Shown here piece after piece: positions 4,193 through 20,912 of a DNA stretch of 64,000 bases. Position numbers and translations under genes: made by a program. Position 1 is the first letter of the stretch. Every line of letters starts with the position of its first letter. The DNA comes from a virus: IMG/VR virus record IMGVR_UViG_3300029305_004190. The stretch is one strand, 5' to 3'. The notes beneath the pieces are model-generated. The model saw only the letters and a list, made by a program, of their open reading frames with translations. It was not told the DNA's origin and did no database searches.

Positions 4193-4265
4193 GGGAGAGT
4201 GGCGCAATCGGTTAGCGCAAGAAGTAGTTTGTCTGTTGTTGGTTCGAGTCCAACCTCTCCCACCA
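4193..4265 (+). tRNA. tRNA-like gene with intact acceptor, D and T arms but no Watson-Crick anticodon stem (possible pseudo-tRNA or non-canonical tRNA)
   Basis: GGGAGAG/CTCTCCC acceptor, GCGC-AATCGGTTA-GCGC D arm, GTTGG-TTCGAGT-CCAAC T arm, ACCA 3' end; region 4220-4237 cannot form a 5-bp anticodon stem. Confidence 0.4.
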
Positions 4266-4291
4266 TCATTATTAACTTAGGAGGGCTAAAG

Positions 4292-4531
4292 ATGAGGGTT
4301 ATAAATTTTTCCTACAACGGCTTTTCTGGTAGTGTAACTGGTGGGTATGCCAACTACACAGCGGAATTCAAAGAGTGGACAGAAGACCCGGGCGTGGCGG
4401 TCTGCCTTTGTAGTGATGGCGTGGAACGGTTAATACCAACCTTTGCACTTGAGGGATTCTGTGAAAAAGACTATCCGGTGCAGAACAATGAAAACAAGTT
4501 TTTCTATATCGGGAAACCGTGTAAGAGTTAA
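4292..4531 (+). CDS. Hypothetical protein (79 aa)
   Basis: ATG preceded by AGGAGG SD at 4279-4284; the 5' part of the track ORF 4199-4531 overlaps the tRNA-like gene and is rejected. Confidence 0.5.
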   Translation: MRVINFSYNGFSGSVTGGYANYTAEFKEWTEDPGVAVCLCSDGVERLIPTFALEGFCEKDYPVQNNENKFFYIGKPCKS

Positions 4532-4534
4532 TAA

Positions 4535-4643
4535 GGGCAGGTATGCAAGCGGTTAAAGCGGAGTCCGGAAAACTCGCAATTATCAACTTGAAGCGCTACG
4601 TGGTTGATAATGTTCGATGGTTCGAATCCATCCTTGCCCACCA
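4535..4643 (+). tRNA. Atypically long (109 nt) tRNA-like gene with a perfect 8-bp internal hairpin; isotype not assignable (possible type-II/Ser(GGA)-like or insert-containing tRNA)
   Basis: GGGCAGG/CTTGCCC acceptor (one GU), Ser-like D arm (GC-AAGCGGTTAAA-GC), GATGG-TTCGAAT-CCATC T arm, ACCA end; internal TTATCAAC...GTTGATAA 8-bp stem with 15-nt loop; candidate anticodon loop CCGGAAA lacks U33. Confidence 0.4.
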
Positions 4644-4646
4644 TTT

Positions 4647-4729
4647 GCGGAGCTGGCGGAATGGCAGACGCAGCGGATTCAAAACCCGCCGCCTTTGGCG
4701 TAAGGGTTCAAGTCCCTTGCTCCGCACCA
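4647..4729 (+). tRNA. tRNA-Leu (anticodon CAA), type II
   Basis: GCGGAGC/GCTCCGC acceptor, 3-bp D stem GCG/CGC, anticodon loop TTCAAAA, variable arm CGCC-TTT-GGCG, AAGGG-TTCAAGT-CCCTT T arm, ACCA. Confidence 0.7.
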
Positions 4730-4733
4730 ATAT

Positions 4734-4820
4734 GCTGGTATGGCGAAACTGGCAGACGCGATAGATTCAGAGTCTATTGGGCTTATGCTCGTGCAGGTTC
4801 GATTCCTGTTACCAGCACCA
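4734..4820 (+). tRNA. tRNA-Leu (anticodon CAG), type II
   Basis: GCTGGTA/TACCAGC acceptor, ATAGA-TTCAGAG-TCTAT anticodon arm, long variable arm, GCAGG-TTCGATT-CCTGT T arm, ACCA. Confidence 0.75.
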
Positions 4821-4841
4821 AATAACCTTTCGGAGGTACAT

Positions 4842-5174
4842 ATGGCTACAACAAAAATGATTGATTCGCTGTCAGAAGCGCTGCTTCGTGCAAAGGATAG
4901 TGCCTTGATATATGCTGATGCCGAGGACGATGGAACGTGCAACTTTGACACGCCGCAGTTGAGCCTCAGCGAATGGAAACCCAAAGAGGTAGAGCAGGCA
5001 TTTGTCAAGGCTGATTTAAGGTGTGATATCCAAAAGTCCGGTAAAGGACTTATCGTAGACATTCTCGGATGCACAACCGGTCAGGGTTCTCGCAGAACAC
5101 AAATGGCTGAAGCTGTACGAGACAGCTTGAAAGTGGATGGTTACGAAGCCTATGTGTACTATCAGATGGATTAA
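4842..5174 (+). CDS. Hypothetical protein (110 aa)
   Basis: ATG with GGAGG SD immediately after the tRNA cluster; upstream part of the track ORF overlaps the tRNAs. Confidence 0.5.
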   Translation: MATTKMIDSLSEALLRAKDSALIYADAEDDGTCNFDTPQLSLSEWKPKEVEQAFVKADLRCDIQKSGKGLIVDILGCTTGQGSRRTQMAEAVRDSLKVDGYEAYVYYQMD

Positions 5175-5191
5175 GGAAATGGAGGTATTAC

Positions 5192-5857
5192 ATGAGCGCG
5201 AAGATACATATTCCAGCAGACGAGGTATGGTCGTTCTTCTTCAAAAATAAGGAACGCTGTACTGAAGAAATGGTGGAAATCGCATCAAACGATGAAACCA
5301 AATATGCGGTATACCTTACCGAAGATGAGGGGTACCCGATGCTCTCTGTATGCCACGGAGATGACGAACCCGAGTATGAAGAGGGTACAATCAGTAAAGA
5401 TGACTGTACTGAAACCGCAAAAAGAATGTTTATCCGTTACCTTTTCCCGGTGACAGTGACCTGTGGTAAGACGATTTTCCAAGAAAACGTCGAAAAGGAT
5501 GACGAGGTGGACGAGGATGATGACCCGACGGAACAGGATAGACTTGATGAAATCTATGAGCGCGACGATGAATTGACGCTTGCTCTCTGCGAATTCTTGA
5601 AAGTCGTATTTGAGGAGGATACCGATGGCGCAGAACTCCTTGAAACGTATACAGAGGCGGTCATTGCTGAAATCCTTGACGAATTCCTCGATTTATTGGC
5701 AGTCAATCACAGCTTTACGGATATAAGACGACCGACATTCATAAACGACCCCGAGACAGGAGTTGAGTTCTTCACAGAATATCCTTACGACCCTGATGTG
5801 GTTTTTGAGGATGGAATGGCGGCAGTCGAAGAAGAAACCGATGGGGATGCAGAGTAA
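5192..5857 (+). CDS. Highly acidic hypothetical protein (221 aa; D/E-rich), candidate DNA-mimic/anti-restriction protein
   Basis: GGAGG SD; runs such as DEVDEDDDPTEQDRLDEIYERDDE; net charge strongly negative. Confidence 0.55.
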   Translation: MSAKIHIPADEVWSFFFKNKERCTEEMVEIASNDETKYAVYLTEDEGYPMLSVCHGDDEPEYEEGTISKDDCTETAKRMFIRYLFPVTVTCGKTIFQENVEKDDEVDEDDDPTEQDRLDEIYERDDELTLALCEFLKVVFEEDTDGAELLETYTEAVIAEILDEFLDLLAVNHSFTDIRRPTFINDPETGVEFFTEYPYDPDVVFEDGMAAVEEETDGDAE

Positions 5858-5871
5858 TCCCCGTCTACTAC

Positions 5872-5962
5872 GGCGGAGTGGCAGAGATGGCTTATTGCAG
5901 CAGTCTTGAAAACTGTCGGCGGGTCAAACCGCCCGTGGGTTCGAATCCTACCTCCGCCGCCA
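5872..5962 (+). tRNA. tRNA-Ser (anticodon TGA), type II
   Basis: GGCGGAG/CTCCGCC acceptor, GCA-GAGATGGCTTAT-TGC D arm, anticodon loop CTTGAAA, variable arm GGCGG-GTCAAA-CCGCC, GTGGG-TTCGAAT-CCTAC T arm, G-CCA. Confidence 0.75.
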
Positions 5963-5989
5963 ACTTGAGAATAATGGAGGTTTTTGAAT

Positions 5990-6649
5990 ATGCCTGAGTG
6001 TTTAGACAATTTCCCGTGGCGCTCGCTGAAAGGGTGCGGCAGCATGGCTCCGGCTATGTTCAAAGTCGGTGATTATAAGAATGAACGTCTGAAAGACGGA
6101 ACTGAAGTCCAGTTCAGAATCATCGGATTCAATCACGATAAAACCATTACAGGCGACATCGTCCCGTTCACTTGGGAGATGGTTGACTGTATGCCAAATC
6201 GTTACCCGTGGAATGAGCGTGATACGACTGAGGGCTCTTGGGGCGCGACATTCCTGCGGCGTGAAATGAACCAACCGGACGGTCGAATCTTCCGATTGAT
6301 GCCCGATGAAATCGTTGAGCTGGCAGTGCCGGTCATCAAGCTGACTGCCAATACATATACCGGTGAAAACAACATCCTTGAGACTGAGGATAAGTTTTGG
6401 ATAAAGTCTGAAAAAGAGCTTTTTGGACGAAACATCCTTTCAGCACCCGGCGAAGGTCACTGGTACGAATATTACAGACAGGAAGATGTGGCTTGGGGCA
6501 AAAAGCGTAATGGTTCCAACGAGTATACCATGCTGCGTTCCCCTAGTTGCAACGACAGCACCTATTTCTGCATTGTGGACACGGACGGCATTGCGGACTT
6601 TTACTACGCAAGGAATTCCATTGGGCTCGCCCCGGCTTTCTGCTTCTAA
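5990..6649 (+). CDS. Hypothetical protein (219 aa), W/Y-rich
   Basis: ATG 9 nt after GGAGG (5976-5980); no recognisable catalytic motif. Confidence 0.6.
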   Translation: MPECLDNFPWRSLKGCGSMAPAMFKVGDYKNERLKDGTEVQFRIIGFNHDKTITGDIVPFTWEMVDCMPNRYPWNERDTTEGSWGATFLRREMNQPDGRIFRLMPDEIVELAVPVIKLTANTYTGENNILETEDKFWIKSEKELFGRNILSAPGEGHWYEYYRQEDVAWGKKRNGSNEYTMLRSPSCNDSTYFCIVDTDGIADFYYARNSIGLAPAFCF

Positions 6650-6840
6650 TCTACTTATCTAATCGGATTCAGCACCACGAAAGTGGTGCGAGTTCAAACC
6701 ATATCATGACGAGAACAACCCACCAAACGGTGGGTTTTCTCATGCTCACAACGGCTCCAGCCTCCACGCGGCGTGAGTGGATAGCCATAAGGCTAACGAA
6801 TAGGGGTACATATTTTATAGTACAAAAGGAGTACAAAAAC

Positions 6841-7242
6841 ATGGCAAGAATCACTATCGCAGGCGACGCAGTAGTCGTAACTTCCGCACTGAAGCTTGAG
6901 GACATCAAGACCATCGCAAAGTATCGCCCCAACGAGCTCATTCTCAAGGGTGGCGAGGACGGTAAGGAGCCGATTTTCGGTATCGGCGTAACTTCCGGCT
7001 GTGGTTCCATCAATGAGGTCGGCGCATCTTTCGGTCGTGAATCCCACGATGAAGACAAGCTCGCTACCATCACGATGTGCACCGGCGGCGATGTAACCGG
7101 TGATGTCAAGGAGTGGGTCGCAGACCACATCGGCGGCGCAATCATCAAGCTGAACAAGCTCGAAGAGAAGCTTCCCGCAGTTCTCGCAGAAATCGCAGAC
7201 GAAAAGGCTGCGGTTATGAGCAACATCTCCGTCGCTCAGTAA
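6841..7242 (+). CDS. Hypothetical protein (134 aa) with strong SD and structured leader, probably highly expressed
   Basis: AAAAGGAG SD; ~185-nt leader with three perfect hairpins; followed by strong terminator. Confidence 0.6.
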   Translation: MARITIAGDAVVVTSALKLEDIKTIAKYRPNELILKGGEDGKEPIFGIGVTSGCGSINEVGASFGRESHDEDKLATITMCTGGDVTGDVKEWVADHIGGAIIKLNKLEEKLPAVLAEIADEKAAVMSNISVAQ

Positions 7243-7249
7243 GAAATAT

Positions 7250-7280
7250 GGGGCGGTTCCCGCCGCCCCTCCCCTTTTCT
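7250..7280 (+). terminator. Rho-independent terminator
   Basis: GGGGCGG-ttcc-CGCCGCCCC followed by TCCCCTTTT. Confidence 0.65.
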
Positions 7281-7331
7281 TCTATCAACCAATCCATCAA
7301 AAAATTTTCATGAATCAAAGGAGAATACATA

Positions 7332-7562
7332 ATGATTAAGGTAACTGTAGGTAACAACGTAAAGCGCGAATCCGTTATCATCGACGAAAACACCACCCTC
7401 CGTTCCTGCCTTGAGGCAAACGGCGTTGACTACACTCGCGGTGTTATGCATCTCGACGGTTCCTCCCTGAACCCCGGCGACCTCGACAAGACCTTCGCAA
7501 GCTTCGGTATCACTGAGAAGTGCTTCCTGCTGAACGTGGTCAAGGCGGATAACGCTGCCTGA
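7332..7562 (+). CDS. 76-aa ubiquitin-like beta-grasp protein (Ubl candidate), C-terminal tail ...KADNAA rather than GG
   Basis: AAAGGAG SD; same length as ubiquitin and aligns block-for-block by eye (IKVTVGN.. ~ IFVKTLTG..; HLDGSSLNPGDLDKTFASFGITEKCFLLNVVK ~ [29 protein letters not shown]); two intrinsic-terminator-like hairpins follow. Confidence 0.5.
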   Translation: MIKVTVGNNVKRESVIIDENTTLRSCLEANGVDYTRGVMHLDGSSLNPGDLDKTFASFGITEKCFLLNVVKADNAA

Positions 7563-7617
7563 TTCGGATGTGTGGGCGACTTCGCCCATAAATAATAACA
7601 AAGGGCACGCTCTGTCG

Positions 7618-7636
7618 AAGGGCTTGCCCTTTTTCC
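7618..7636 (+). terminator. Terminator-like hairpin with T-run (a second hairpin GGGCGA-ct-TCGCCC lies at 7574-7587)
   Basis: AAGGGC-tt-GCCCTT followed by TTTTCC. Confidence 0.5.
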
Positions 7637-7638
7637 AT

Positions 7639-7724
7639 GGGGGATTGGCGGAACTGGCAGACGCAGCGGGTTTAAGCCCCGCTGGTGTTTCACCGTATCG
7701 GTTCGACCCCGATATCCCCCACCA
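7639..7724 (+). tRNA. tRNA-Leu (anticodon TAA), type II
   Basis: GGGGGAT/ATCCCCC acceptor, GCG/CGC D stem, GCGGG-TTTAAGC-CCCGC anticodon arm, GGTG-TTT-CACC variable arm, ATCGG-TTCGACC-CCGAT T arm, A-CCA. Confidence 0.75.
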
Positions 7725-7751
7725 TAATGTATAAACAAGAGAGGTGTTTCT

Positions 7752-9236
7752 ATGTTCAAAACAAGCATTGCATCAACGCCTTTGACATCTGATGCAGCGA
7801 ACGCCTATTTCCATAATATCTATGGTGATAACTTCGGAAGCGATAACTCGTTTGTCGCTACACTGCGAGCGTTGGTGGCTCCTCGAATGAAAGAGGATGA
7901 GCACATATACCTTATGTTTGGTCAGTCGAACTACGACACAACCGCTGTAAGTAGTGCACCGACCGAAAGGGTTGTTTCAGCAATCTGCCGCAACTATGAG
8001 CTGAATGATACAAATGGTACGATTATCATTCACAGCTTCACATCCAGCGAAGAAAACAATCTCGCAAATTTCCGAGCAATCGGTGCAAAGTTCACGTCAT
8101 GTTATGACGGATACCACTGTCTCGACAAGGTTAAGGCGTTCTACCATAAGTCTTTTATCGTTGACTGTTATATCAATCCCGAACGGAAAAATGTTATCGT
8201 GTTTGTCGATAACCTCGATACGAAAAAGCTTCACTATCTGCAGGTTTCAATCTTGGCTTTCCTGCCTTGGTACTTTGACCCCGAAGCAGGTGTATCCGAG
8301 CTTGAAATGGAACTCCTTTACTCCCTCCGCGAGACAACTTCGGAAAAATACGAAAGCTGTATTGCAAAAATCGCAGAGGCTTACGACTTCAAGAGCGCAA
8401 GAGTTCGGCAGTTGCTTGCCGGTTTTGAAACTCGCTATGAGCGTATGGAATGCGATAAGGTGCGCAGAGAAATCCAGCAGTTTGACAATGAAATGAATCG
8501 TCTCAACGAACAAATCGGTGTTCTTTTGGGACGAAGAAATGATACTTGTATCAAGCTGATGGGGCTTGAACGTAAAATCGCCGAGGGTGGCGAAGATTCC
8601 GAAATTATGGAATACTTCCTCTGTAACAACAGATTGTATCTTGAGAATGTTACTGACCAAGATATGTATTTTGCTGTCAAGGATTATCTCATGTATTTCG
8701 ACCGTGAAATGGCAGAGAGAGCAATCAGCAATACGCGCAGCTTTGTATATCCGTATGACAACAATACTCATAACGGCATCACGAAAGACGGCATGAAAAA
8801 GCTCATGACAGAGATTTTTGTCAGCGAAGAACCGAGACTGAGAATCAAATTCTGTGCCGCATACCGATTTGCTCTGAATGGAAGCGTTAGTACACAGGGT
8901 GGTCACCGTTTCCCGAGTGAGTTTTCTGACTGTATGCCAAACACCCATATCGACAGATACAACTGTATGGGTAACTATCCGATGACCATCAATAAGCTTC
9001 TTGCAAACCACGATTACATAGGTGCACTTGAACAGTGCATTGCTTCGTGTAAGAGTCTCAACTGGGGTGACAGTACAGTCATGGGTTCCTTTATGGAAAA
9101 TATGTGGGGCAGTGGTCGCACAAACAATCGTTGTATCGAACTTCCCGATGGTCGAGTGGTCAAGCCTGTTGAAGCCATCAAATGGCTTGAAGAACAGGAG
9201 GCAATCTCAAATGTCAAGGAAAAAGAGGAGGAATAA
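7752..9236 (+). CDS. Large Cys-rich hypothetical protein (494 aa) inside the Ubl/JAB/E1 operon
   Basis: GAGAGG SD; central coiled-coil segment; no motif recognised by eye (E2-like HPN motif not found). Confidence 0.65.
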   Translation: MFKTSIASTPLTSDAANAYFHNIYGDNFGSDNSFVATLRALVAPRMKEDEHIYLMFGQSNYDTTAVSSAPTERVVSAICRNYELNDTNGTIIIHSFTSSEENNLANFRAIGAKFTSCYDGYHCLDKVKAFYHKSFIVDCYINPERKNVIVFVDNLDTKKLHYLQVSILAFLPWYFDPEAGVSELEMELLYSLRETTSEKYESCIAKIAEAYDFKSARVRQLLAGFETRYERMECDKVRREIQQFDNEMNRLNEQIGVLLGRRNDTCIKLMGLERKIAEGGEDSEIMEYFLCNNRLYLENVTDQDMYFAVKDYLMYFDREMAERAISNTRSFVYPYDNNTHNGITKDGMKKLMTEIFVSEEPRLRIKFCAAYRFALNGSVSTQGGHRFPSEFSDCMPNTHIDRYNCMGNYPMTINKLLANHDYIGALEQCIASCKSLNWGDSTVMGSFMENMWGSGRTNNRCIELPDGRVVKPVEAIKWLEEQEAISNVKEKEEE

Positions 9237-9243
9237 ACAGAAA

Positions 9244-10149
9244 ATGAGTAAGCCAATCAAAATGACAGAGCAGTACATGAGCGAATGCCGTGCTGACTTT
9301 GAAAAAGCATTACAGCTTACCAAGCTTGCTGATGGTAAGCTGAATTTCACCAAGGTCTTTTCCATTGCAGACAAGAAAGCAACTGTTTACTTCACGGGCG
9401 AGGCATGGACGAAGATGGTCATGCTCATTAAGGAGTTTGACAAGGAAGTAGCATGGCATGGTGTTGCACGTCGTGTCGAAGACGAGTCCAAGGACGAGTA
9501 TATCATCTCCGATATCATGGTATATCCGCAGACAGTTACCGGTGCATCAGTTGAAATGGATACTGAAAAGTATGCAGTGTGGCTGATGGATAACGCCGAT
9601 GATGAGCGTTTCGATAACATCCATATGCAGGGTCACTCCCATGTCAATATGGGAACCACTCCTTCAAGCGTTGACCTCAATCATCAGGAAGAAATCCTGA
9701 ATATGCTTGGTGATGAGGATTTCTATATCTTCATGATATGGAACAAGTCTTTCACAAGCACAAACAAGGTGTATGACCTGAAGAAAAACATCCTGTTTGA
9801 GGACAGAGATATCACCGTAAAGATTATTGGCGGTGTTGAAGACCTTGATGCCTTTGTCAAGGCGGCAAAAGACATGGTAAAAACCAAAGCATATGTCACC
9901 CCATCCTACAATGCCAATGGTGGATATCAGTACAACAAGCCCGCCGGAACTCCGTACAATCCGGTATCTACCACAACCACTCCCAAGTCCGATAAGTCCG
10001 ATGACAAGGAAAATAAGAAGAGTGGTAAAAAGGACAAGCCCAGAACAAAAATCGAGGGCACATCCGGCAAAAATGCTTGTCAGCAAAGCATCTTCGATAT
10101 GTATGATGATGCGGACGACCCGTACAGTTCATATTACAGGGGGTATTAA
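9244..10149 (+). CDS. JAB/MPN+ (JAMM) metalloprotease-domain protein with low-complexity basic C-terminal tail
   Basis: HMQGHSHVNMGTTPSSVD = H-x-H-x7-S-x2-D JAMM zinc motif with upstream Glu residues; GAGGAGG SD; alternative in-frame ATG at 9211. Confidence 0.65.
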   Translation: MSKPIKMTEQYMSECRADFEKALQLTKLADGKLNFTKVFSIADKKATVYFTGEAWTKMVMLIKEFDKEVAWHGVARRVEDESKDEYIISDIMVYPQTVTGASVEMDTEKYAVWLMDNADDERFDNIHMQGHSHVNMGTTPSSVDLNHQEEILNMLGDEDFYIFMIWNKSFTSTNKVYDLKKNILFEDRDITVKIIGGVEDLDAFVKAAKDMVKTKAYVTPSYNANGGYQYNKPAGTPYNPVSTTTTPKSDKSDDKENKKSGKKDKPRTKIEGTSGKNACQQSIFDMYDDADDPYSSYYRGY

Positions 10150-10152
10150 GAT

Positions 10153-10824
10153 ATGGATTTATCCAAAAGCTACGAATATTTTCAGCCTGAAAAGCAGGAC
10201 GACCGCATCCACATCATCGGATGCGGTTCCGTCGGCTCTACAGTCGCATATATGCTGGCACGTACCGGCGTAACCAATTTCACTCTGTGGGATTTCGACA
10301 TTGTCGAACCTCACAACCTCGCAAATCAGATGTTCCGTCAGAAAGATATCCATAAGCCCAAGGTCGAGGCGCTGCTTGATATTATCTGCGAAATCAATCC
10401 CGATATCGCAGAATGTGCAAAGCTCAAACCCGAGGGGTGGAAAGGACAGCAGCTTTCCGGTTATGTGTTCCTTTGCGTAGACAACATCGACCTGCGCAGA
10501 GAAATCGTTGAAAAGCATTTCGATAATCCGTATGTCAAGGCAATGTTCGATTTCAGAACTCGTCTTGAAGATGCACAGCATTATGCTGCTGACTGGTCAG
10601 ACTATAAGATGAAAAAAGATTTCCTTAACTCCATGAATTTCTCTCACGACGAAGCCAAGGAAGAAACTCCTGTGTCAGCGTGCAATGTAACGCTGTCGGT
10701 ATGCCCCACTGTCCTTGTAATCTGCGCAAGAGGTGTGGCGAACTTCATGAATTTCTGGAACGGCAAAGGAATCAAGAAGCTTGTTCTCGACGATGCGTTC
10801 AAGTTCGTCTGTGACGCATTCTAA
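10153..10824 (+). CDS. E1-like adenylyltransferase (ThiF/MoeB/ubiquitin-activating family), 223 aa
   Basis: IIGCGSVGSTVAYMLARTGV Rossmann GxGxxG motif, DFDIVEPHNLANQ (ThiF DxDxxExSNLNRQ-like), LCVDNID; translationally coupled to the JAB gene. Confidence 0.75.
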   Translation: MDLSKSYEYFQPEKQDDRIHIIGCGSVGSTVAYMLARTGVTNFTLWDFDIVEPHNLANQMFRQKDIHKPKVEALLDIICEINPDIAECAKLKPEGWKGQQLSGYVFLCVDNIDLRREIVEKHFDNPYVKAMFDFRTRLEDAQHYAADWSDYKMKKDFLNSMNFSHDEAKEETPVSACNVTLSVCPTVLVICARGVANFMNFWNGKGIKKLVLDDAFKFVCDAF

Positions 10825-10859
10825 AAACAATTCAAAAAAGATGAAAGGAGGTGTGTGCC

Positions 10860-11663
10860 GTGGATGTAAAGATAAGCGACCTTAAAATCGGCGCACAACT
10901 GATACTGGGGAAATATGGTGTCAGAAATAACATTCCTTTCCCGGTTATGTGGCTTAAATGCACTCCAAACAGTGATTTTATAACGCAATCAGCGGTCGAT
11001 TATCTGCCTTTTGATGCAAATGAGCCTGATAATGATGAGTTCAGAGGATATGGAAACCCAAATTACGGATTATCCAATCTCTTGGCATTCATGAATAGTG
11101 CCGATGAGTCATGGTATCGACCGACGCATTCGACGGATACGCCTCCCGACATGATGCATACCACACGGTCATCCCAGTATCAATCACACTATGGTTTTCT
11201 GTATCACTTTGAAGAGTACGAGATTGAAAGCCTTGTGAAGACAACTGTTGAGGTGTCGGGCGAACGTGTCACTTCTGCGATTCGTTTACCATCGAGTGAG
11301 GAACTTTCGGGAGCACAACGATTCGAATTGTTCCAGCGAAAAGGAATCCGAGCTAAAGGCACTGAGGATATGATTGCCAATCGCCTCGGGCATAATTTCG
11401 ATTACAATTCATTCATTCCGGTTTGGGTGCGTAACAAAAGTGTGCACTTTGTCAAGAGCGCATTGTGCCTGAGCAGAAATTGTAGTCTGGATACGGTATC
11501 ACCTCGGAACAGTTCGGGATTGCGTCCTGTTTGTACAATCAATCCTGATACGCCAGTGATTCTCGGCGAAGATGGATACTACTACATAAAACCCCGTCCC
11601 GTACAGCGAAATGTCTATACAGACGAGGAGCTTTTTGAACTCTTAGGTTTGGCGCAGCCTTAA
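10860..11663 (+). CDS. Hypothetical protein (approx. 268 aa)
   Basis: GTG 8 nt after GGAGG (alternative GTG at 10851); no recognisable motif. Confidence 0.55.
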   Translation: MDVKISDLKIGAQLILGKYGVRNNIPFPVMWLKCTPNSDFITQSAVDYLPFDANEPDNDEFRGYGNPNYGLSNLLAFMNSADESWYRPTHSTDTPPDMMHTTRSSQYQSHYGFLYHFEEYEIESLVKTTVEVSGERVTSAIRLPSSEELSGAQRFELFQRKGIRAKGTEDMIANRLGHNFDYNSFIPVWVRNKSVHFVKSALCLSRNCSLDTVSPRNSSGLRPVCTINPDTPVILGEDGYYYIKPRPVQRNVYTDEELFELLGLAQP

Positions 11664-11664
11664 T

Positions 11665-12016
11665 TGCGCCGAAGCTGTAACGCATTTTCCCTCTGGGGAG
11701 CTTTACGCCAAAGGCTAAAGTAACACATTGCTGGAGAAGATATACACCGCCTCCCTGAAAGGAGGAGAAGGCGCCACGAGAAGTCGGCGAGCCAATCGCC
11801 GGATTGCGGTCGTCTTGACATTTGAATATCACATATACATTTCTTTGTCAAGCCACTTTCCACACTTTTCCACATCACAATCGGTACATTTGGATTACTT
11901 TTCTCGAAAAGACTCCGAAATCACCGTCAGCCCGTGCCTCAGAACTCGAACGAAGAGTCTGGGCAGAAAGCTGCACTTTTACAAAGGTTACAGCCTCTAA
12001 TTTTGGATAGGAGGTA
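11665..12016 (+). ncRNA. Putative structured non-coding RNA upstream of the reverse transcriptase (candidate retron msr/msd-like template RNA)
   Basis: 352 nt with no ORF; several perfect hairpins (CGGCGA-gccaa-TCGCCG; CTTGACA-25nt-TGTCAAG; CTTTTC-tc-GAAAAG); imperfect inverted repeat gaagctgtaacg (11671-11682) / ggttacagcctc (11986-11997) resembling retron a1/a2 boundaries. Confidence 0.3.
11701..11739 (+). repeat. Copy 1 of a ~40-nt paralogous motif (ctttacgcc-aaaggctaaagtaacacattgctggagaag), followed by a GC-rich hairpin region
   Basis: About 80% identical to copies at 13215-13253 and 13488-13528, all in + orientation. Confidence 0.55.
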
Positions 12017-13159
12017 ATGAATATGATTTATATCACAGTAAAACAATCTCCGATATATCATCAAATGACTATCGAAGAACTCCTTATGCAGGATTTCACT
12101 GCTCCTGCAGTTATAAATCCGAATTTGACAAACACAAAAACATACGAAGTGGAGTATGTTAGCGAAAGATTCATGCGCAGACTTGATGTGGATATGCTTA
12201 TTGCAAAGCTCGTCCAGTTCAATCAGTCGGTTGAATCGCTGCGCCAACAGAAACGCAGCGACCTGTATGAAACATTCTATATTCCTAAAAAGTCAGGTGG
12301 TCTTAGAAGAATCGACGCACCCAAAGCTGAACTTATGGATGCGTTGCGTCGGCTCAAGACCATCTTGGAAGAAGATTTCCATGTTCTCTATCATACATCA
12401 GCATTTGCCTATGTAAAAAAGCGTTGTACAGTTGATGCAGTTAAGCGCCACCAAGCCAACAACAGTAAGTGGTTTGGCAAGCTCGACCTCCACGATTTCT
12501 TTGGAAGCACCACTTTGGATTTCGCTATGTCTATGCTTTCAAAAATCTTCCCTATCAGCGAAGTGGTTAAGGTGGAGACAGGCAGAAATGCATTGCAATG
12601 CGCGCTCGAACTTGCTTTCCTTAATGGCGGACTTCCGCAGGGGACTCCCATTTCACCGCTCATCACAAATGTTATGATGATTCCGGTTGATTTCAAGTTG
12701 GCAAATACCTTGAGAGAGTTTGAACAGCAGAAATTTGTGTACACCAGATATGCGGATGACTTTATCATTTCGTCCAAATATGACTTTGATGTACATAAGG
12801 TCGAAGAACTTGTTGTTTCAACTCTCAAGGATTTCAATGCTCCATTTTCAATCAACGCTTCTAAAACAAGATATGGCTCATCTGCAGGACGAAATTGGAA
12901 TCTCGGTGTAATGCTGAATAAAGACAACGAGATTACAGTTGGTCACAAAAAGAAACACCAGCTTCAGTCTATGATGTTCAACTATATCACCGATAAACGT
13001 AAGGGCATCGAGTGGAGTCGTGAAGACATCATGGTAATGCAGGGACTGCATAGCTATTATCGCATGGTTGAAGAAACAGTGATTGATGCAATCGTAAAAC
13101 ATATCAATGAAAAGATGGGCGTAGATGTATTGCGCCTTATCAAAGAAGATTTAAGATAA
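12017..13159 (+). CDS. Reverse transcriptase, retron-type (RT-only, 380 aa)
   Basis: FYIPKKSGGLRRIDAP (RT motif 1/2), LDLHDFFGST (motif 4), GLPQGTPISPL (motif 5), YTRYADDFII (YxDD); C-terminal region aligns by eye with retron Ec86 RT around the VTG region (here NLGVMLN) and downstream (IMVMQGLHSYYRMVE ~ HVRGWLSFILSVD); GGAGG SD. Confidence 0.85.
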   Translation: MNMIYITVKQSPIYHQMTIEELLMQDFTAPAVINPNLTNTKTYEVEYVSERFMRRLDVDMLIAKLVQFNQSVESLRQQKRSDLYETFYIPKKSGGLRRIDAPKAELMDALRRLKTILEEDFHVLYHTSAFAYVKKRCTVDAVKRHQANNSKWFGKLDLHDFFGSTTLDFAMSMLSKIFPISEVVKVETGRNALQCALELAFLNGGLPQGTPISPLITNVMMIPVDFKLANTLREFEQQKFVYTRYADDFIISSKYDFDVHKVEELVVSTLKDFNAPFSINASKTRYGSSAGRNWNLGVMLNKDNEITVGHKKKHQLQSMMFNYITDKRKGIEWSREDIMVMQGLHSYYRMVEETVIDAIVKHINEKMGVDVLRLIKEDLR

Positions 13160-13214
13160 ACAACTGGCGGTTGGACAAACCGTCCACCCTGTAATGCATA
13201 GCCTTTCGAGGCGC

Positions 13215-13253
13215 TTATCGCTTATGGCATAAGTAACACATTGGTGAGAAAGA
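13215..13253 (+). repeat. Copy 2 of the ~40-nt motif (cgcttatggcataagtaacacattggtgagaaag), followed by a GC-rich hairpin region
   Basis: Shares aagtaacacattg core and flanks with copies 1 and 3. Confidence 0.55.
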
Positions 13254-13487
13254 AGGAAGGCGGGCGACGCGACGCCGGGCTCCGAAGACCGGTCATCGCA
13301 CAACTTCAGTCCAATTCATCTGATGAGATTTACCTTCAAGCCCTTGTCGCACAATAAGACACTGCTCATCGCTCACCAGCAAAGCAGGTTCTGCAGCATG
13401 AATCCGGTATCCTTCTGCTGGCAGCCATCCTACGTAGATTACAGGAAATAAAACACATTTGCAATGAATAATACTCTATTGAGTATG

Positions 13488-13528
13488 CTTTACGCTCATG
13501 GCTAAAGTACCAACTTGCTCGGAGAACA
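13488..13528 (+). repeat. Copy 3 of the ~40-nt motif (ctttacgctcatggctaaagtaccaacttgctcggagaaca), followed by a GC-rich hairpin region
   Basis: Shares ctttacgc...ggctaaagta...ttgct.ggagaa with copy 1. Confidence 0.55.
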
Positions 13529-13747
13529 GAGGGCACGCACTGGAGGTGCCGTCCCGGTGACCATGGTCTGGCAAGAGCTTGGACAACATCCTCAGAAAGC
13601 CCAAACCACTGTGCCACAATAAGGACGACCCGAATTCAACTGTAAAATATAATTTTTACAGCTCTATAAAAGATGTCTCCTAAGCTTCCGCCCAGTCTTC
13701 AGATGCCTGCTTATCCTATGTAGATTGCAAATGAGAAAGGAAAATTC

Positions 13748-14434
13748 ATGATATATGTAACCGGTGATATCCACGCACACATCGACATCGGGAAGTTAAA
13801 TACACAGAGATTTCCCCAACAAAAATCATTGACTAAATCGGACTATCTCATCGTATGCGGTGATTTTGGACTGGTATGGGATAACTCCAAAAGTGACCTG
13901 TATTGGCGAGATTGGCTGTCAGATAAACCATTTACCACATTGTGGGTGGATGGAAACCATGAGAACTTTGAACTGTTATATCAGTTCCCGCTTGAAGATA
14001 AATTCGGCGGAAAGGTTCGTGAAATCGCACCCAGCATATATCATTTGGATAGAGGACAAGTCCTCACCATTGACAATAAGACGTTCTTTGTTATGGGCGG
14101 TGCTGCTTCGCATGACAAAGAATATCGCAAGGAACATATATCTTGGTGGAAAGATGAGTTGCCAACCGTCGCAGAGATGGAACGAGGTATCAAAGCACTT
14201 GAAGCCAATAACTGGACAGTTGATTTCGTTATTTCACATTGCGCTCCGCGCTCTGTCCAGACAATGATTGCCAGTTGGTATGAAAGTGACCCATTGGTCA
14301 GCTTCTTTGAACGAGTTCGAACAGACCTTAATTTTAAGAAGTGGTTCTTTGGTCACTATCATGTTGATAAACAGCTTAACGAGCAGTTTATTGCACTGTA
14401 TAACAATATTATTCCTCTCGATACAGTTTGTTGA
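13748..14434 (+). CDS. Calcineurin-like metallophosphoesterase
   Basis: GDIHAH, CGDFG, GNHE motifs in canonical order. Confidence 0.8.
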   Translation: MIYVTGDIHAHIDIGKLNTQRFPQQKSLTKSDYLIVCGDFGLVWDNSKSDLYWRDWLSDKPFTTLWVDGNHENFELLYQFPLEDKFGGKVREIAPSIYHLDRGQVLTIDNKTFFVMGGAASHDKEYRKEHISWWKDELPTVAEMERGIKALEANNWTVDFVISHCAPRSVQTMIASWYESDPLVSFFERVRTDLNFKKWFFGHYHVDKQLNEQFIALYNNIIPLDTVC

Positions 14435-14515: not shown

Positions 14516-14589
14516 AGGGGTGTGGTGTAATGTAACATAGCGGTCTCCAAAACCGCCTGATTGGGGTTCGAATCCCTACACCCCTGCCA
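14516..14589 (+). tRNA. tRNA-Trp (anticodon CCA) with atypical D loop lacking GG
   Basis: AGGGGTG/CACCCCT acceptor, GCGGT-CTCCAAA-ACCGC anticodon arm, TGGGG-TTCGAAT-CCCTA T arm, G-CCA; D arm GTGT-AATGTA-ACAT. Confidence 0.65.
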
Positions 14590-14836
14590 GTTGTCGGGTC
14601 GCTCCCGACTGATGTGAGAGTGTGAGCAGGAATCCTCACGGAGAATAACAATGTCCGCTGAAAACAGTATGAATGCGTACCACGACAGGTCAATGAATCT
14701 GTCACGCTTAACATACCGACAATCTAAGCGGGAACTGCTCCAAAAAAGACATTTTAACTGGATGTCGCGCCCTGCTCGGGAGAAAGAGCCGCCACCCGGA
14801 GGGCGACCATGGTGAAAAAAACATCCGGGGCACTAA

Positions 14837-14931
14837 TGGGGTATCGCCAAGCGGTAAGGCATCAGACTTTGACTCTGACAAGAGCGGTGTAATGCCCTCG
14901 CTCGCCGGTTCGAATCCGGCTACCCCAGCCA
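14837..14931 (+). tRNA. 95-nt tRNA with anticodon TTG (Gln) but an unusually long (~24 nt) variable arm
   Basis: TGGGGTA/TACCCCA acceptor, GCC-AAGCGGTAA-GGC D arm, TCAGA-CTTTGAC-TCTGA anticodon arm, variable arm GAGCG-12nt-CGCTC, GCCGG-TTCGAAT-CCGGC T arm, G-CCA. Confidence 0.55.
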
Positions 14932-14957
14932 ATAAAAATCAAGAAAGGAATTGAACA

Positions 14958-15515
14958 ATGAAACCTTATGATGTAGGCTTAATATGTGGACGATTCCAGA
15001 CTTTTCATAAAGGACATGAGAAGTTGGTGGAAACAGGCTTGATGCTCTGTGACCGTCTTCTCATTCTCATCGGAAGCTCTCAGGAATGTGGTACAGAACG
15101 TAATCCATTAAATATCAATACAAGAACCAAGATGCTGAAGATGGTATATGGTGATGACCCAAACATTATGATATATGGTCTCCCTGACCTGTCAAATGAA
15201 AATGATATCCGTCCTGAATGGGGACGTTATTTGCTTGCCAACGCAGACCGATACATCTATAAGAATCCCGATGTCATGATTTATGGCAACGATGAGAGTA
15301 GAAGCGCTTGGTTTGCAAAAGAAGATTTGAAATATACAACAGAACTTATCATCAATAGAAGCGAGCTTCCTATCTCCGCGACTATGTTAAGAAAATACAT
15401 GGTTGAGGATAACCGCAAGGCTTGGATGGAGCTTGTGAATCCAAAGCTTCATAAGATGTATGATGAACTTCGCCGTGAACTCATGACAGTTGAATTCTAT
15501 CAACAAATGTCATAG
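14958..15515 (+). CDS. nadM: Nicotinamide/nicotinate mononucleotide adenylyltransferase (NMNAT, NadM/NadR-type cytidylyltransferase fold)
   Basis: ICGRFQTFHKGHEKLV (HxGH nucleotidyltransferase motif), 185 aa, C-terminal ISATMLR; GGAA SD. Confidence 0.8.
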   Translation: MKPYDVGLICGRFQTFHKGHEKLVETGLMLCDRLLILIGSSQECGTERNPLNINTRTKMLKMVYGDDPNIMIYGLPDLSNENDIRPEWGRYLLANADRYIYKNPDVMIYGNDESRSAWFAKEDLKYTTELIINRSELPISATMLRKYMVEDNRKAWMELVNPKLHKMYDELRRELMTVEFYQQMS

Positions 15516-15674
15516 TCAATAAACAAGGGTTTACAGTAATGACTCCAAACCAGAAACCCTGAGACCTACCATGTAGGGCGACAGCGATTGTGTAAGGCAA
15601 CGTATTGCGCTGTTAGGGAGTTATGTGAAAGTCAAGCCATCCAATTCTGGATGTTCCGTTATAGCCGGCATCAT

Positions 15675-15768
15675 GGAGAGTTAAGCATAATTGGTACTGC
15701 AGCGGATTGCTAATCCGTTCGCCGTCATTTAGTGCGGCGTGGAGGTTCGAGTCCTCTACTCTCCGCCA
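15675..15768 (+). tRNA. tRNA-Ser (anticodon GCT), type II
   Basis: GGAGAGT/ACTCTCC acceptor, GCGGA-TTGCTAA-TCCGT anticodon arm, CGCCG-TCATTTAGTG-CGGCG variable arm, GGAGG-TTCGAGT-CCTCT T arm, G-CCA. Confidence 0.75.
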
Positions 15769-15771
15769 AGT

Positions 15772-15847
15772 GCTGGAATAGTTCAGTTGGCAGAACAGGG
15801 CATTCGTACTGCTCAGGTCTTCGGTTCGACTCCGAATTCCAGCTCCA
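15772..15847 (+). tRNA. tRNA-Thr (anticodon CGT)
   Basis: GCTGGAA/TTCCAGC acceptor, GTTC-AGTTGGCA-GAAC D arm, GGGCA-TTCGTAC-TGCTC anticodon arm, TTCGG-TTCGACT-CCGAA T arm, T-CCA. Confidence 0.8.
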
Positions 15848-16050
15848 TTTAGGAGAGGCTATACTCCGAGGTACCCTTGAGGTCTGGAGCAACAAGGAAA
15901 AAGAAAGTCCCCAGAATGTTTTACGGTGTTCAGACAAACCGCCATAGAGCAGAAGTGTTTAGGGTCAGTGCTCCCATATAGCAAGTGTGGAGAGACGGTA
16001 AGGACAAGGCGTGGAAATCTGCAGAAGCGCGAAAAACCCTTCACAAATAC

Positions 16051-16126
16051 GCTGGTGTAGCTCAGATGGTAGAGCACTGGTTTTGTACTCCAGATGTCGC
16101 GGGTTCGATGCCTGTCACCAGCTCCA
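16051..16126 (+). tRNA. tRNA-Thr (anticodon TGT)
   Basis: GCTGGTG/CACCAGC acceptor, TAGCTCAGATGGTAGAGC D arm, anticodon loop TTTGTAC, GCGGG-TTCGATG-CCTGT T arm, T-CCA. Confidence 0.8.
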
Positions 16127-16129
16127 TAC

Positions 16130-16205
16130 GCTGATGTAACTCAGTTGGTAGAGTAGCGGATTTTTAATCCGTCAGTCGCAGGTTCGACTCCTGTCATCGG
16201 CACCA
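16130..16205 (+). tRNA. tRNA-Lys (anticodon TTT)
   Basis: GCTGATG/CATCGGC acceptor, AACTCAGTTGGTAGAGT D arm, GCGGA-TTTTTAA-TCCGT anticodon arm, GCAGG-TTCGACT-CCTGT T arm, A-CCA. Confidence 0.8.
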
Positions 16206-16355
16206 CCCCTCAAAGGGGATGAACATAGTGTACGTGAACCTACAGTTCACACCTTCCTCTCTCATATATTGTCAAGCATTGATGTGATGCTTACGGTGAA
16301 GATGGCTTCGAACCCATCGGCAATATATGCTCCCTTTAACCGTATTCCTTCCTAT

Positions 16356-16431
16356 ATGGGCGTAGCGCAGTTGGAAGCGCACCTGCCTTGGGGACAGGGG
16401 GTCGTGGGTTCGAACCCCACCGCCCATACCA
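16356..16431 (+). tRNA. tRNA-Pro (anticodon TGG)
   Basis: ATGGGCG/CGCCCAT acceptor, GCGC-AGTTGGAA-GCGC D arm, anticodon loop CTTGGGG with G37, GTGGG-TTCGAAC-CCCAC T arm, A-CCA. Confidence 0.75.
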
Positions 16432-16453: not shown

Positions 16454-16942
16454 ATGCTTTTATATCACGGAACACCGAACATTTTTAGCGAACCGTCTCT
16501 CGCAAAGTGTAAGCCGCACCGAGATTTCGGATGCGGCTTTTATCTTGCCCAAAATTTTCAAGACGCTTTACCGCTCGCAATCAAGCATTCACGCATCGGA
16601 TATGTATATACCTATGTGCTCAAAGACACTGACGACCTCAACGTCATCACTTTGGATGGATATTCCGATGAGTGGCTTGAATTAGTTGTGCGGTCAAGGC
16701 TCGGCTGCCCTCCAAATGCCGATTTGGTAATCGGGAATACAGCAGGAGGCGGCGCAAACCTTAAAGATAAGTTCACTAAGCTGAGGAATAGTGATGCATC
16801 GGTTAAAGAAGTAATCAACCTCATGCGAGATGAGCTGACAAAAACAAGCCTTGGAATTCAGTATTGTTTTCTGACTCCGAAGGCTTTATCAAAACTTCAA
16901 AAAATCAATGGTGAAATGTTTGAAAGGGAGGCAATAAGATGA
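16454..16942 (+). CDS. Hypothetical protein (162 aa) with N-terminal LYHGT...GFY motif (possibly ADP-ribosyltransferase-like H-Y-E fold; unverified)
   Basis: AAGGAG SD; motif order YHGT / GCGFY / later acidic residues resembles the H-Y-[ED] ART signature but cannot be confirmed by eye. Confidence 0.5.
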   Translation: MLLYHGTPNIFSEPSLAKCKPHRDFGCGFYLAQNFQDALPLAIKHSRIGYVYTYVLKDTDDLNVITLDGYSDEWLELVVRSRLGCPPNADLVIGNTAGGGANLKDKFTKLRNSDASVKEVINLMRDELTKTSLGIQYCFLTPKALSKLQKINGEMFEREAIR

Positions 16943-17478
16943 CCAGAGCCGAGTTTTTAGATAACATTACCGATTGGGGCGAGCTTAAAGAGTTCTGCTC
17001 TGACTGGGAATGCGACTACTGTGACGACATCTACGATGAAGACGGGAGAGACGACCAAATCAACGAGGACATCGGTGATTATAGTTGCGATTACTCATGG
17101 GATTCCCTCAGAGATTTGCTGAATGATATCCCTTCTGGGTACGATTATTACTGTAGAAGTTCTGCGTTCAACTGGGAAGAAGCTGACGACGAAATGTTCG
17201 AACGCTACAAGTCTGATGTCTGCGAGTGGGCAGACAACGGCGGCGTTTGGGATGAAGATGAGGAAGATGAGGATATCTTCGAAGAAGAGGATGATTTCTT
17301 TGCAGAAGAACCTGACGAAACACCCGTCGAAGACGAAGACTTCTCCGTTGGCGACCTGATTGGTATGTGTAGTGTAGCATTCGTTACAATCCAAAAGGAT
17401 AATATGCGCAAGATTCAGGAAGATAAAAAGGCATTCGACGAGTTCGTTGATGTGAATATTCCGAAAGTTCTGAAATAA
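16939..17478 (+). CDS. Extremely acidic Cys/Trp-containing protein (179 aa), candidate DNA mimic / anti-restriction factor
   Basis: Runs such as DEDEEDEDIFEEEDDFFAEEPDETPVEDED; start overlaps previous stop (ATGA). Confidence 0.55.
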   Translation: MTRAEFLDNITDWGELKEFCSDWECDYCDDIYDEDGRDDQINEDIGDYSCDYSWDSLRDLLNDIPSGYDYYCRSSAFNWEEADDEMFERYKSDVCEWADNGGVWDEDEEDEDIFEEEDDFFAEEPDETPVEDEDFSVGDLIGMCSVAFVTIQKDNMRKIQEDKKAFDEFVDVNIPKVLK

Positions 17479-19706: not shown

Positions 19707-20912
19707 ATGATTGAGTTGCAAGGCAAGTATGCAACTGCGAAGGTGTTCACCGATGTGGTTGATAATGAATCAATCTCACAGGTAATCAACCTTTTGAATC
19801 AACCCTACATAGAGGGCAGCAAAGTTCGTATGATGCCGGACATCCATGCTGGAGCTGGATGCACCATCGGCACCACTATGACAATCAGTGATAAGATTTG
19901 CCCGAATCTTGTTGGCGTTGATATCGGATGCGGAATGGAAACCATCCGCATCAAGGAAACTTTCATCGAGCCGCAGAAGCTGGATAAAGTTATCCGTTCA
20001 GAAATTCCATCCGGTTTTGAAATCCGTAAGAATCCGCACCGTTTCGCTAAAGGCATTGATTTATCTGCATTGTATTGCGCCAAGAAGATTAAGCTCGACC
20101 GAGCATATAACAGCATTGGCACACTTGGTGGAGGTAACCACTTTATCGAAGCGAACAAAGACGAAGATGGTCATATCTACATCGTAGTTCACTCCGGTAG
20201 TCGCCATCTCGGTTTGGAGATTGCTAATCTGTATCAGGAGGCGGCGTATGCTTCACTCACCTCTTACAGCAAGGATGAAATCGAAAAGATTATCGAGGAA
20301 CTGAAGGCTGCGGGGCGGCAGAAAGAAATTCAGAATGTTCTGAAAAACTTGAAAGCCAAGCATTCTCCGATTCCGAAACCTCTTGCTTATGTTGAGGGAG
20401 AACTGTTCGAGCAGTATCTGCACGATATGCGCATTGCTCAACAGTACGCCAACCTCAACAGAAAAGCAATGATGGACACTATCGTGAAAGCGATGGGTTT
20501 CCACGTTGAAGAACAGTTTACCACAATTCATAACTACATTGATGTGGAAAATATGATTCTGCGCAAGGGAGCTGTATCGGCTCAGGCTGGCGAACGCCTG
20601 CTGATTCCTATCAATATGCGTGACGGTAGTTTGGTGTGCACTGGTAAAGGCAACGAGGATTGGAACTGTTCCGCACCTCACGGTGCCGGTCGGTTAATGA
20701 GCCGAAGCGAGGCAAAGCAAACCTTCACTGTTTCTGAGTTCAAGAAACAGATGGACGGTATCTACACCACTTCTGTTGGACGAAGCACACTCGATGAATG
20801 CCCGATGGCATATAAGAATATGGAAGATATCGTGAAAAACGTAGAACCAACTGTCACGATTGATTCCGTTATCAAGCCTATCTACAACTTCAAGGCGGGT
20901 GATGAAGAATGA
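19707..20912 (+). CDS. rtcB: RtcB-family RNA 3'-phosphate ligase
   Basis: VGVDIGCGM, GGGNHFIE, VHSGSRHLG, HNYIDVEN, CSAPHGAGR motifs in RtcB order; AAGGAGGG SD. Confidence 0.9.
   Translation: MIELQGKYATAKVFTDVVDNESISQVINLLNQPYIEGSKVRMMPDIHAGAGCTIGTTMTISDKICPNLVGVDIGCGMETIRIKETFIEPQKLDKVIRSEIPSGFEIRKNPHRFAKGIDLSALYCAKKIKLDRAYNSIGTLGGGNHFIEANKDEDGHIYIVVHSGSRHLGLEIANLYQEAAYASLTSYSKDEIEKIIEELKAAGRQKEIQNVLKNLKAKHSPIPKPLAYVEGELFEQYLHDMRIAQQYANLNRKAMMDTIVKAMGFHVEEQFTTIHNYIDVENMILRKGAVSAQAGERLLIPINMRDGSLVCTGKGNEDWNCSAPHGAGRLMSRSEAKQTFTVSEFKKQMDGIYTTSVGRSTLDECPMAYKNMEDIVKNVEPTVTIDSVIKPIYNFKAGDEE

Follow-up and report, generated by a model that had tools for sequence, protein, structure and literature searches.

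A phage-encoded retron-type reverse transcriptase flanked by three paralogous putative primer-template RNAs

Retrons are bacterial anti-phage systems made up of one reverse transcriptase (RT), one non-coding RNA (ncRNA) and one effector. They also occur on temperate coliphage-like elements, with Ec73 on the retronphage phiR73 and Ec67 and Ec86 in P2/186-like prophages; these are canonical retrons with a single ncRNA and an effector, carried as host-protecting prophage cargo. The defence-associated RT systems DRT2 (UG2) and DRT9 (UG28) consist of a stand-alone RT beside a structured ncRNA and lack a separate effector gene; the RNA is a rolling-circle template in DRT2 and a poly-A template in DRT9. 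The diversity-generating retroelements (DGRs) of gut phages combine a phage RT with nearby repeated non-coding sequence. In genome editing, a single RT works on engineered arrays of Retron-Eco1 ncRNAs ("multitrons"; 10.1101/2023.07.17.549397), so one RT is able to use several arrayed ncRNAs. Here we analysed a 64,000-nt stretch of viral DNA (IMG/VR record IMGVR_UViG_3300029305_004190; the window) that carries a retron-type RT gene bordered by three related structured RNA modules. Sequence comparison suggests that the phage probably encodes here a retron variant whose single RT serves three paralogous primer-template RNAs arranged as an array.

The locus shares much with the bacterial retrons Retron-Eco1/Ec86, Sen2/St85 (type II-A) and Ec83/Ec78 (type I-A). 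The RT falls into the same clade, and an ncRNA lies directly 5′ of the RT gene on the same strand, with terminal a1 and a2 arms, a conserved G after a1, msr-like stem-loops, a putative template beside a2 and an a2 arm placed just ahead of the RT start. Unlike in bacterial retrons, three ncRNAs accompany one RT (1 to at least 7 in relatives) and some stand in tandem 3′ of it. The present locus also has ~70 extra N-terminal RT residues, altered VTG and NA(xxH) signatures, no long msd hairpin and no known effector, and its carrier is a large phage with hosts of the gut Clostridia type, not a bacterial defence island. It has a place on a phage genome in common with the coliphage-borne retrons, but consists of an RNA array in the accessory region of a phage of ~100 kb or more. 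Like a multitron, it combines serial ncRNA/msd modules with a single RT and would yield several RT-DNAs per cell; the multitrons are man-made, whereas the present array is natural, conserved and evolving by tandem duplication. Compared with DRT2 and DRT9, the RT is far closer to retron RTs, and the RNA is present in several copies with an a1/a2-G layout. In contrast to gut-phage DGRs, the repeats are structured RNAs without adenine-specific divergence, there is no template repeat/variable repeat (TR/VR) pair in the window and the RT is not of the DGR kind.

The initial annotation had reported a 380-aa retron-type RT between long spacers free of open reading frames (ORFs). The frame is indeed open for 380 aa (12017-13159) with its catalytic motifs intact, and only short mechanical ORFs occur in the 353 nt upstream (11664-12016) and the 588 nt downstream (13160-13747). 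Translation likely starts at the ATG at 12023, which is preceded by AGGAGG 8 nt upstream; nearly all homologues are 378 aa long and begin with M-x-YITV. The N-terminal extension of ~70 aa is specific to this family. Searches of profile and structure libraries returned Pfam RVT_1 (2.6e-20), PADLOC RT_II-A (6.4e-47) and RT_I-A (3.3e-41), with a best PADLOC score of 158 bits, and NCBIfam retron_St85_RT (1e-50; 172.7 bits, under the cut-off of 235). In the PDB, the retron Ec83 RT came first (8.9e-22), followed by Ec78, Ec67 and Kva2. The group II maturase model TIGR04416 (3.3e-24; 85.7 bits, cut-off 300), Drt2 (2.7e-11; 43 bits, cut-off 390; DRT2 in the PDB, E = 9e-4) and Drt3a (6.5e-7; 29 bits, cut-off 200) were far weaker, and DGR RTs were not among the best matches in PADLOC, NCBIfam or the PDB. 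By its best matches in these three independent libraries, the RT is a member of the retron clade, in line with the annotation. As a control, a Salmonella type I-A retron RT scored 427 bits on the model of its own type and 120-185 bits on those of other types; judged on this scale, the phage RT lies outside every modelled retron type. The motifs YTRYADD, GGLPQGT and NWxLG were invariant across eight RT homologues at 44-76% identity. Since YADD and LPQG persist unchanged down to 44% identity, the sequences indicate that the RT is under purifying selection.

One complete RNA module lies upstream of the RT gene (unit 1) and two lie in tandem downstream (units 2 and 3; Table 1), as had been proposed for template-like modules on both sides of the gene. 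Unit 1 runs in the order a1, G, stem-loop 1 (SL1), stem-loop 2 (SL2), GC-rich stems, G-poor stretch and a2. The a1/a2 helices are perfect and 8-10 bp long in all three units, and the minimum free energy (MFE) fold of each unit is closed by a1/a2, followed by a short variable SL1 and then SL2 (z = -4.0 for unit 1 and -2.1 for unit 3). The a2 arm of unit 1 ends 28 nt ahead of the RT start codon. Unit 2 has a conserved UCCUACGUAG immediately 5′ of a2 and is separated by a 10-nt gap from unit 3, which ends 14 nt ahead of the next gene. An inverted repeat at 11671-11682 and 11986-11997, first described as weak, is a perfect 8-bp helix (11674-11681/11987-11994). It had been thought to bound the upstream RNA in the manner of a1/a2, which it does; the feature is not confined to the upstream RNA, however, as both downstream modules are bounded likewise and carry the G after a1.

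The initial annotation had also singled out three ~40-nt elements with about 80% identity. These elements are the conserved second hairpin, SL2, of the three complete ~260-325-nt modules. A repeat search recovered all three where they had been placed (11697-11740, 13210-13253 and 13484-13527), but at 73% and 66% identity to the first copy over 44 nt. Further repeats pair 13337-58 with 13602-23 and 13427-43 with 13713-29, which shows the 588-nt downstream spacer to be a tandem duplication of a ~270-nt unit. The unit interiors (11733-11986, 13247-13437 and 13520-13723) have a two-part composition. The first quarter past SL2 is U-poor (4-14% U) and G/C-rich, consistent with the GC-rich region reported after each element and suggestive of further msr-like stems. 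The middle half is G-poor (about 11-19% G) and A/C-rich, and the msd part contains short hairpins only. In each module the G-poor stretch extends over ~100-170 nt and is followed by a conserved AG next to a2. Two further structural candidates were not retained as family features. The mid-unit hairpin UUGUGCCACAA occurs in the downstream units of the window and of close relatives, but in only 18 of 80 diverse units. An additional helix, joining purine-rich sequence downstream of SL2 to a pyrimidine-rich stretch 5′ of AUGUAG, was found in the two downstream unit types; it was unconfirmed in the upstream type and is not claimed.

The similarity of the three repeats goes far beyond chance, and the modules are specific to the surroundings of the RT. 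Two covariance models, R1 (a1 to just past SL2) and the broader R2, were searched against both strands of the window and each returned exactly three matches (E 1e-11 to 1e-14), all beside the RT; with nhmmer, the best fourth match in the window had E = 0.18. This distribution is not that of a genome-wide phage promoter, which had been raised as a possible explanation of the repeats. The exact SL2 pattern was found in 48 stretches from ~35 of 2.9 million IMG/VR contigs, all of one phage clade. Each stretch had one to three matches, spaced by ~1520 nt across the RT gene or by ~285 nt in tandem.

Such modules also flank the RT gene in ~100 related phage loci with RT identities of 36-87%. Every covariance model match there maps to the RT strand and falls to one side or the other of the RT gene, never within it. 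At RT identities of at least 60%, one unit upstream and two downstream are present in 29 loci, and one on each side in 10. Other loci have two units upstream (L138), three upstream and one downstream (L185), or one upstream and six downstream (L146, 5682-9950), so that unit number per RT ranges from 1 to at least 7. Many units directly adjoin the next one head to tail. In L146, several of the seven have nearly identical a1 arms (TCACATTTACATT), indicating recent tandem duplication. The median unit length is 300 nt. The SL2 sequence is common to all units of a genome and the interiors are variable. At 36-45% RT identity, the layout is retained in L029, L032, L043 and L045. Downstream of the RT in L033, two a1-G-SL1-SL2 domains lie 96 nt apart (5184-5356) and the second a2 arm is weak, which suggests a nested or partly duplicated unit.

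Conservation of the RNA structure was quantified across these units. In 99 distinct units, 98.4% of the cells of SL1 and SL2 were paired, compensatory changes were present at 13 of 14 pairs and the covariation score was 0.862, compared to 0.243 for shuffles (reached by 0 of 500). Fitting the alignment to the model, as was done here, favours pairing. However, slid registers gave 33-46% pairing and covariation scores of 0.06-0.13, and together with the number of pair types these controls argue that the covariation signal is real. A G directly 3′ of a1 was present in 85/85 and 97/99 aligned units. An a1/a2 helix was scored when anchored at the base before this G, with a partner 100-520 nt downstream and a score of at least 16 (equivalent to at least 8 bp). 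Such a helix was found in 82% of 97 units, compared to 13.7% when the anchor was shifted by 3-9 nt. There were 49 distinct a1 8-mers, each with a matching a2, and the dinucleotide 5′ of a2 was AG in 65 of 80 units.

Table 1. Positions of the RT gene, the RNA modules and the conserved upstream block in the window
Feature	Position	Strand	Description
RT gene	12023..13159	+	378 aa; ORF open from 12017 (380 aa)
Unit 1 (upstream ncRNA, msr-msd-like)	11674..11994	+	321 nt; covariance model match 11672-11749, 77.8 bits, E 4.5e-14
Unit 1, a1 arm	11674..11681	+	GCTGTAAC; followed by invariant G at 11682, candidate branching/priming G
Unit 1, SL1 and SL2	11688..11721	+	SL1 11688-11699; SL2 11700-11721 GCUUUACGCCAAAGGCUAAAGU; fold and covariation
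Unit 1, a2 arm	11987..11994	+	GTTACAGC; inverted repeat
Unit 2 (first downstream ncRNA)	13188..13445	+	258 nt; covariance model match 13186-13262, 68 bits, E 6e-12; fold; RNAalifold with orthologues
Unit 2, arms	13188-13195 (a1), 13438-13445 (a2)	+	a1 CCTGTAAT, G 13196; a2 ATTACAGG
Unit 2, stem-loops	13201-13212 (SL1), 13213-13234 (SL2)	+	small conserved hairpin at ~13341-13353
Unit 3 (second downstream ncRNA)	13456..13733	+	278 nt; covariance model match 13456-13536, 69.6 bits, E 2.8e-12; RNAalifold with orthologues
Unit 3, arms	13456-13465 (a1), 13724-13733 (a2)	+	a1 CATTTGCAAT, G 13466; a2 ATTGCAAATG
Unit 3, stem-loops	13471-13486 (SL1), 13487-13508 (SL2)	+	
131-aa ORF	within block 6847-10824		conserved throughout the clade
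76-aa candidate ubiquitin-like ORF	7332-7562	+	window copy ends ...VKADNAA
tRNA-Leu	7639-7724		inside block region
p494, UBC/RWD-like domain	7752-9236	+	structural matches including BilB E2; invariant His and Cys
JAMM/JAB-like protein	9250-10149	+	RPN11 match, E = 0.0025; HxHx7Sx2D-like motif
ThiF/E1-like protein	10153-10824	+	

On the RNA side, the sequences of the locus have the defining features of a retron: a1 and a2, the conserved G, the msr stem-loops and a place beside the RT. They lack three others, namely the signature residues, a long msd hairpin and a known effector. Taken together, this pattern points to a retron lineage that is carried by phages and has its primer-template RNAs in an array. 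Several observations weigh against this reading. The retron RT signatures are said, in the work of Mestre et al. 2020, to be NAxxH before motif A and VTG in the region after YADD. Aligned with the Ec83 RT, the phage RT has AVKRH for NAKIH, with only the H kept, and WNLGV for HVTGV. Two signature patterns are therefore altered, the NA of NAxxH being gone and VTG being replaced by N-L-G within an N-W-x-L-G that is invariant in the family; the retron-like features once ascribed to the RT do not extend to these residues. The RT scores like a cross-type match (158 bits, compared to 427 for the Salmonella RT on its own type) and does not reach the NCBIfam cut-off. A long msd hairpin is missing, and the putative cDNA strands of the three units fold no better than shuffles (z = -1.26, +0.27 and -0.74). 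By the score criterion, 18% of units have no strong a1/a2 helix. No known retron effector type is encoded beside the RT, where the neighbours are the ThiF-like and JAB-like genes, a 270-aa protein (p270) and a metallophosphoesterase. The data indicate no specific target or role, and the case for a multi-template retron is drawn from sequence alone.

If the locus is a retron variant, the following mechanism can be proposed. The region would be transcribed as a single RNA, probably continuing from the upstream ThiF-like gene. No terminator-like site lies between the modules and the RT gene, and in relatives without p270 the first unit begins 3-60 nt past the ThiF stop codon, in keeping with the proposed transcription of the modules together with the RT. 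Each module would fold independently and be recognised by the RT through the shared SL2, and the 2′-OH of the conserved G (11682, 13196 or 13466) would prime cDNA synthesis. Synthesis would begin at the template base beside a2, for which the conserved AG 5′ of a2 would be the expected mark of a defined start site, and would run 5′-wards through the G-poor stretch to the GC-rich stems. From the two-part composition of the interiors, the expected cDNA would cover the last ~100-170 nt, be T/G-rich and end at the GC-rich stems. The predicted outcome is three different multicopy single-stranded DNAs (msDNAs), branched RNA-DNA molecules with weakly structured T/G-rich DNA parts and a common 5′ end. 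Modules multiply by tandem duplication and their template part diverges fast, which accounts for the 1 to at least 7 units in related phages.

The best-surviving alternative concerns the genes upstream. A conserved block (6847-10824) lies 5′ of the retron module and is present in 72-84 of 84 related loci. Its gene content resembles that of a Bil- or Cap2/Cap3-like ubiquitin-like (Ubl) conjugation operon, here on a phage genome, although the E2 and Ubl calls are weak. A profile of the 76-aa candidate Ubl ORF gave nothing significant against the PDB, and its single-sequence AlphaFold2 (AF2) model was too poor to use, with a predicted local distance difference test (pLDDT) score of 44. Between phages with RTs only 75% identical, the ORF keeps 96-99% identity, and its homologues end in ...DNA plus 0-3 residues. 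The block is a candidate partner of the RT, and both a functional link and plain synteny are possible. The RT array and the Ubl-like/E2-like/JAB/E1-like operon could be expressed together and form one system in which the operon takes the effector's part. For example, the RT or its msDNA could be a substrate, regulator or sensor of Ubl conjugation, comparable to the action of Cap2/Cap3 on the CD-NTase in type II CBASS, and be used against host immunity or rival viruses. This idea draws on the genes for p494, the JAB-like and the ThiF-like protein. Wherever a family locus includes enough flank, they lie immediately 5′ of the RT, even at 36% RT identity and on contigs from Clostridia bins as well as Bacteroidales bins. 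The RT lies 137-2872 nt downstream of the ThiF-like gene in 77 of 80 viral loci, and where no gene is inserted, the first RNA unit follows the ThiF stop codon closely, as given above. The UBC/RWD-like matches of p494, with its invariant His and Cys, and the strongly conserved 76-aa ORF with its defined end point the same way. On the other hand, the window and many relatives have a variable gene, p270, between ThiF and the RNA. Two of the three ThiF loci without a downstream RT are truncated, but the third, L164, keeps the block and has tRNA genes in place of the RT. Phage gene order is also kept by descent, which makes adjacency within one viral clade weak evidence. We regard a single system as distinctly unlikely; if it were true, the locus would represent a retron type whose effector follows an entirely new logic and works on the viral side.

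Two observations concern the block itself. Among full-length loci, L164 (5681-6400) alone has the Ubl/E2/JAB/E1 block and lacks an RT, and a tRNA cluster stands where the retron module would be. At 16939-17478, the window encodes a 179-aa protein that is very acidic, with long D/E runs; in other phages of the clade (L019, L026, L031 and L164), its homologue lies between the JAB-like and ThiF-like genes. This protein might mimic DNA or belong to the Ubl module.

The modules might instead be RT-binding or regulatory RNAs or scaffolds rather than G-primed templates, with an RT product of the DRT/Abi kind (template-independent, protein-primed or rolling-circle). The missing long msd hairpin, the odd G-poor interior, the altered signature residues and the position of the RT in no modelled retron type would all fit. 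However, the a1/a2-G layout is conserved and covaries in ~100 units and is the very arrangement that 2′-OH priming requires, the AG 5′ of a2 is retained, as would be predicted for a defined start site, and the DRT2 (2.7e-11) and DRT3 (6.5e-7) matches fall far behind that to a retron (1e-50). There is thus a slim chance that the RNAs are not templates.

An element for diversity generation or recombineering, whose cDNA edits targets such as tail fibres outside the window, has still less in its favour. Several fast-diverging template modules per RT would suit such a function, and the structural genes and other parts of the phage genome lie beyond the window. Against it, the unit interiors match the rest of the window only by chance 9-19-mers, with no TR/VR-like partner, and no Avd-like gene was noticed. 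The RT carries QGxxxSP, a motif of retron and group II RTs that is unlike the DGR-type motif, and DGR RTs are absent from its best matches. We consider this explanation far-fetched. That the repeats are ordinary regulatory elements (promoters, terminators or attenuators) or a group II intron remnant with the RT as passenger is suggested by their intergenic place beside gene starts but is already contradicted by their distribution, with three copies in the window, all beside the RT, promoter and terminator consensus counts equal to those of shuffles, no Rfam family on the RT flanks at the gathering cut-off or at E up to 10 (no group II intron ribozyme within 11300-14000) and a group II maturase score of 85.7 bits against a cut-off of 300.

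As for the role of the retron variant in the phage, abundant small DNAs made during infection would be expected to act in virus-host or virus-virus conflict, which is the weakest step of the proposal. Counter-defence, with the small DNAs acting as decoys, sponges or antidotes against host immunity, is the leading guess in view of the accessory context, of templates that diverge fast and duplicate in tandem, and of the lack of a toxin; we advance it tentatively. Other roles, including coupling to the neighbouring ubiquitin-like conjugation genes, seem somewhat unlikely, and phage-borne defence or exclusion, the second single candidate, is doubtful.

Two neighbouring genes were considered as effectors, p270 (10851-11663) and the metallophosphoesterase (13748-14434), and both were rejected as neither is conserved beside the RT. 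Elsewhere, the window encodes an NMNAT-like cytidylyltransferase (14958-15515), RtcB (19707-20912), NAMPT (21158-22672), an RNA ligase (27825-28907) and a CCA-adding enzyme (43618-44982), along with 12 tRNA genes (4193-7724 and 14516-16431). NAMPT and NMNAT reportedly form an NAD-reconstitution pair in phage counter-defence (Osterman et al. 2024), and such NAD-salvage and tRNA-repair sets have been linked to counter-defence. The RAGATH-16 RNA of Rfam, whose function is unknown, is matched over its full length at 219-291 on the + strand (86.2 bits, compared to a gathering score of 65.6). An integrase-like ORF (PHROG 5830, 1e-12) lies at 48885-49835, and in some assemblies related contigs with the RT extend to 180-250 kb, so the phage may not be strictly lytic but temperate or episomal.

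RT relatives at 36-87% identity abound in metagenomes and lie on viral contigs of 50-130 kb, whereas canonical bacterial retron RTs are only 25-32% identical to the phage RT. The relatives also occur on contigs binned with Clostridia (such as Roseburia, Oscillospiraceae, Lachnospiraceae, Christensenella and Lawsonibacter) and, in a few cases, with Bacteroidales. Human and animal gut metagenomes contain hundreds of RT protein clusters at 90% identity, some of them on more than 100 contigs. In the GenBank phage collection, there was no match to the locus at the DNA level, and the best RT match at the protein level was an unannotated human faecal phage contig (41% identity).

The architecture had been put forward as undescribed. 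We found no published description of a natural retron with several ncRNAs, or of any such retron carried by a large phage, in a search that left most subscription-journal papers outside its reach, and the only multi-ncRNA retrons found were engineered arrays. The claim thus stands as far as natural precedent in the literature searched is concerned; the arrangement is not unique to this phage, however, but common to a large clade. A conserved lineage of phage retron RTs with no known effector raises the question of what reverse-transcribed small DNAs do for a virus, and several templates per RT raise that of how one RT chooses among them. The array would be a natural precedent for the engineered retron arrays of multiplex genome editing, offering a compact RT, a defined and shared putative recognition hairpin and naturally interchangeable template parts. 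Given the abundance of this RT family in gut metagenomes, its action, whatever its nature, may be common in the conflict between gut phages and their hosts.

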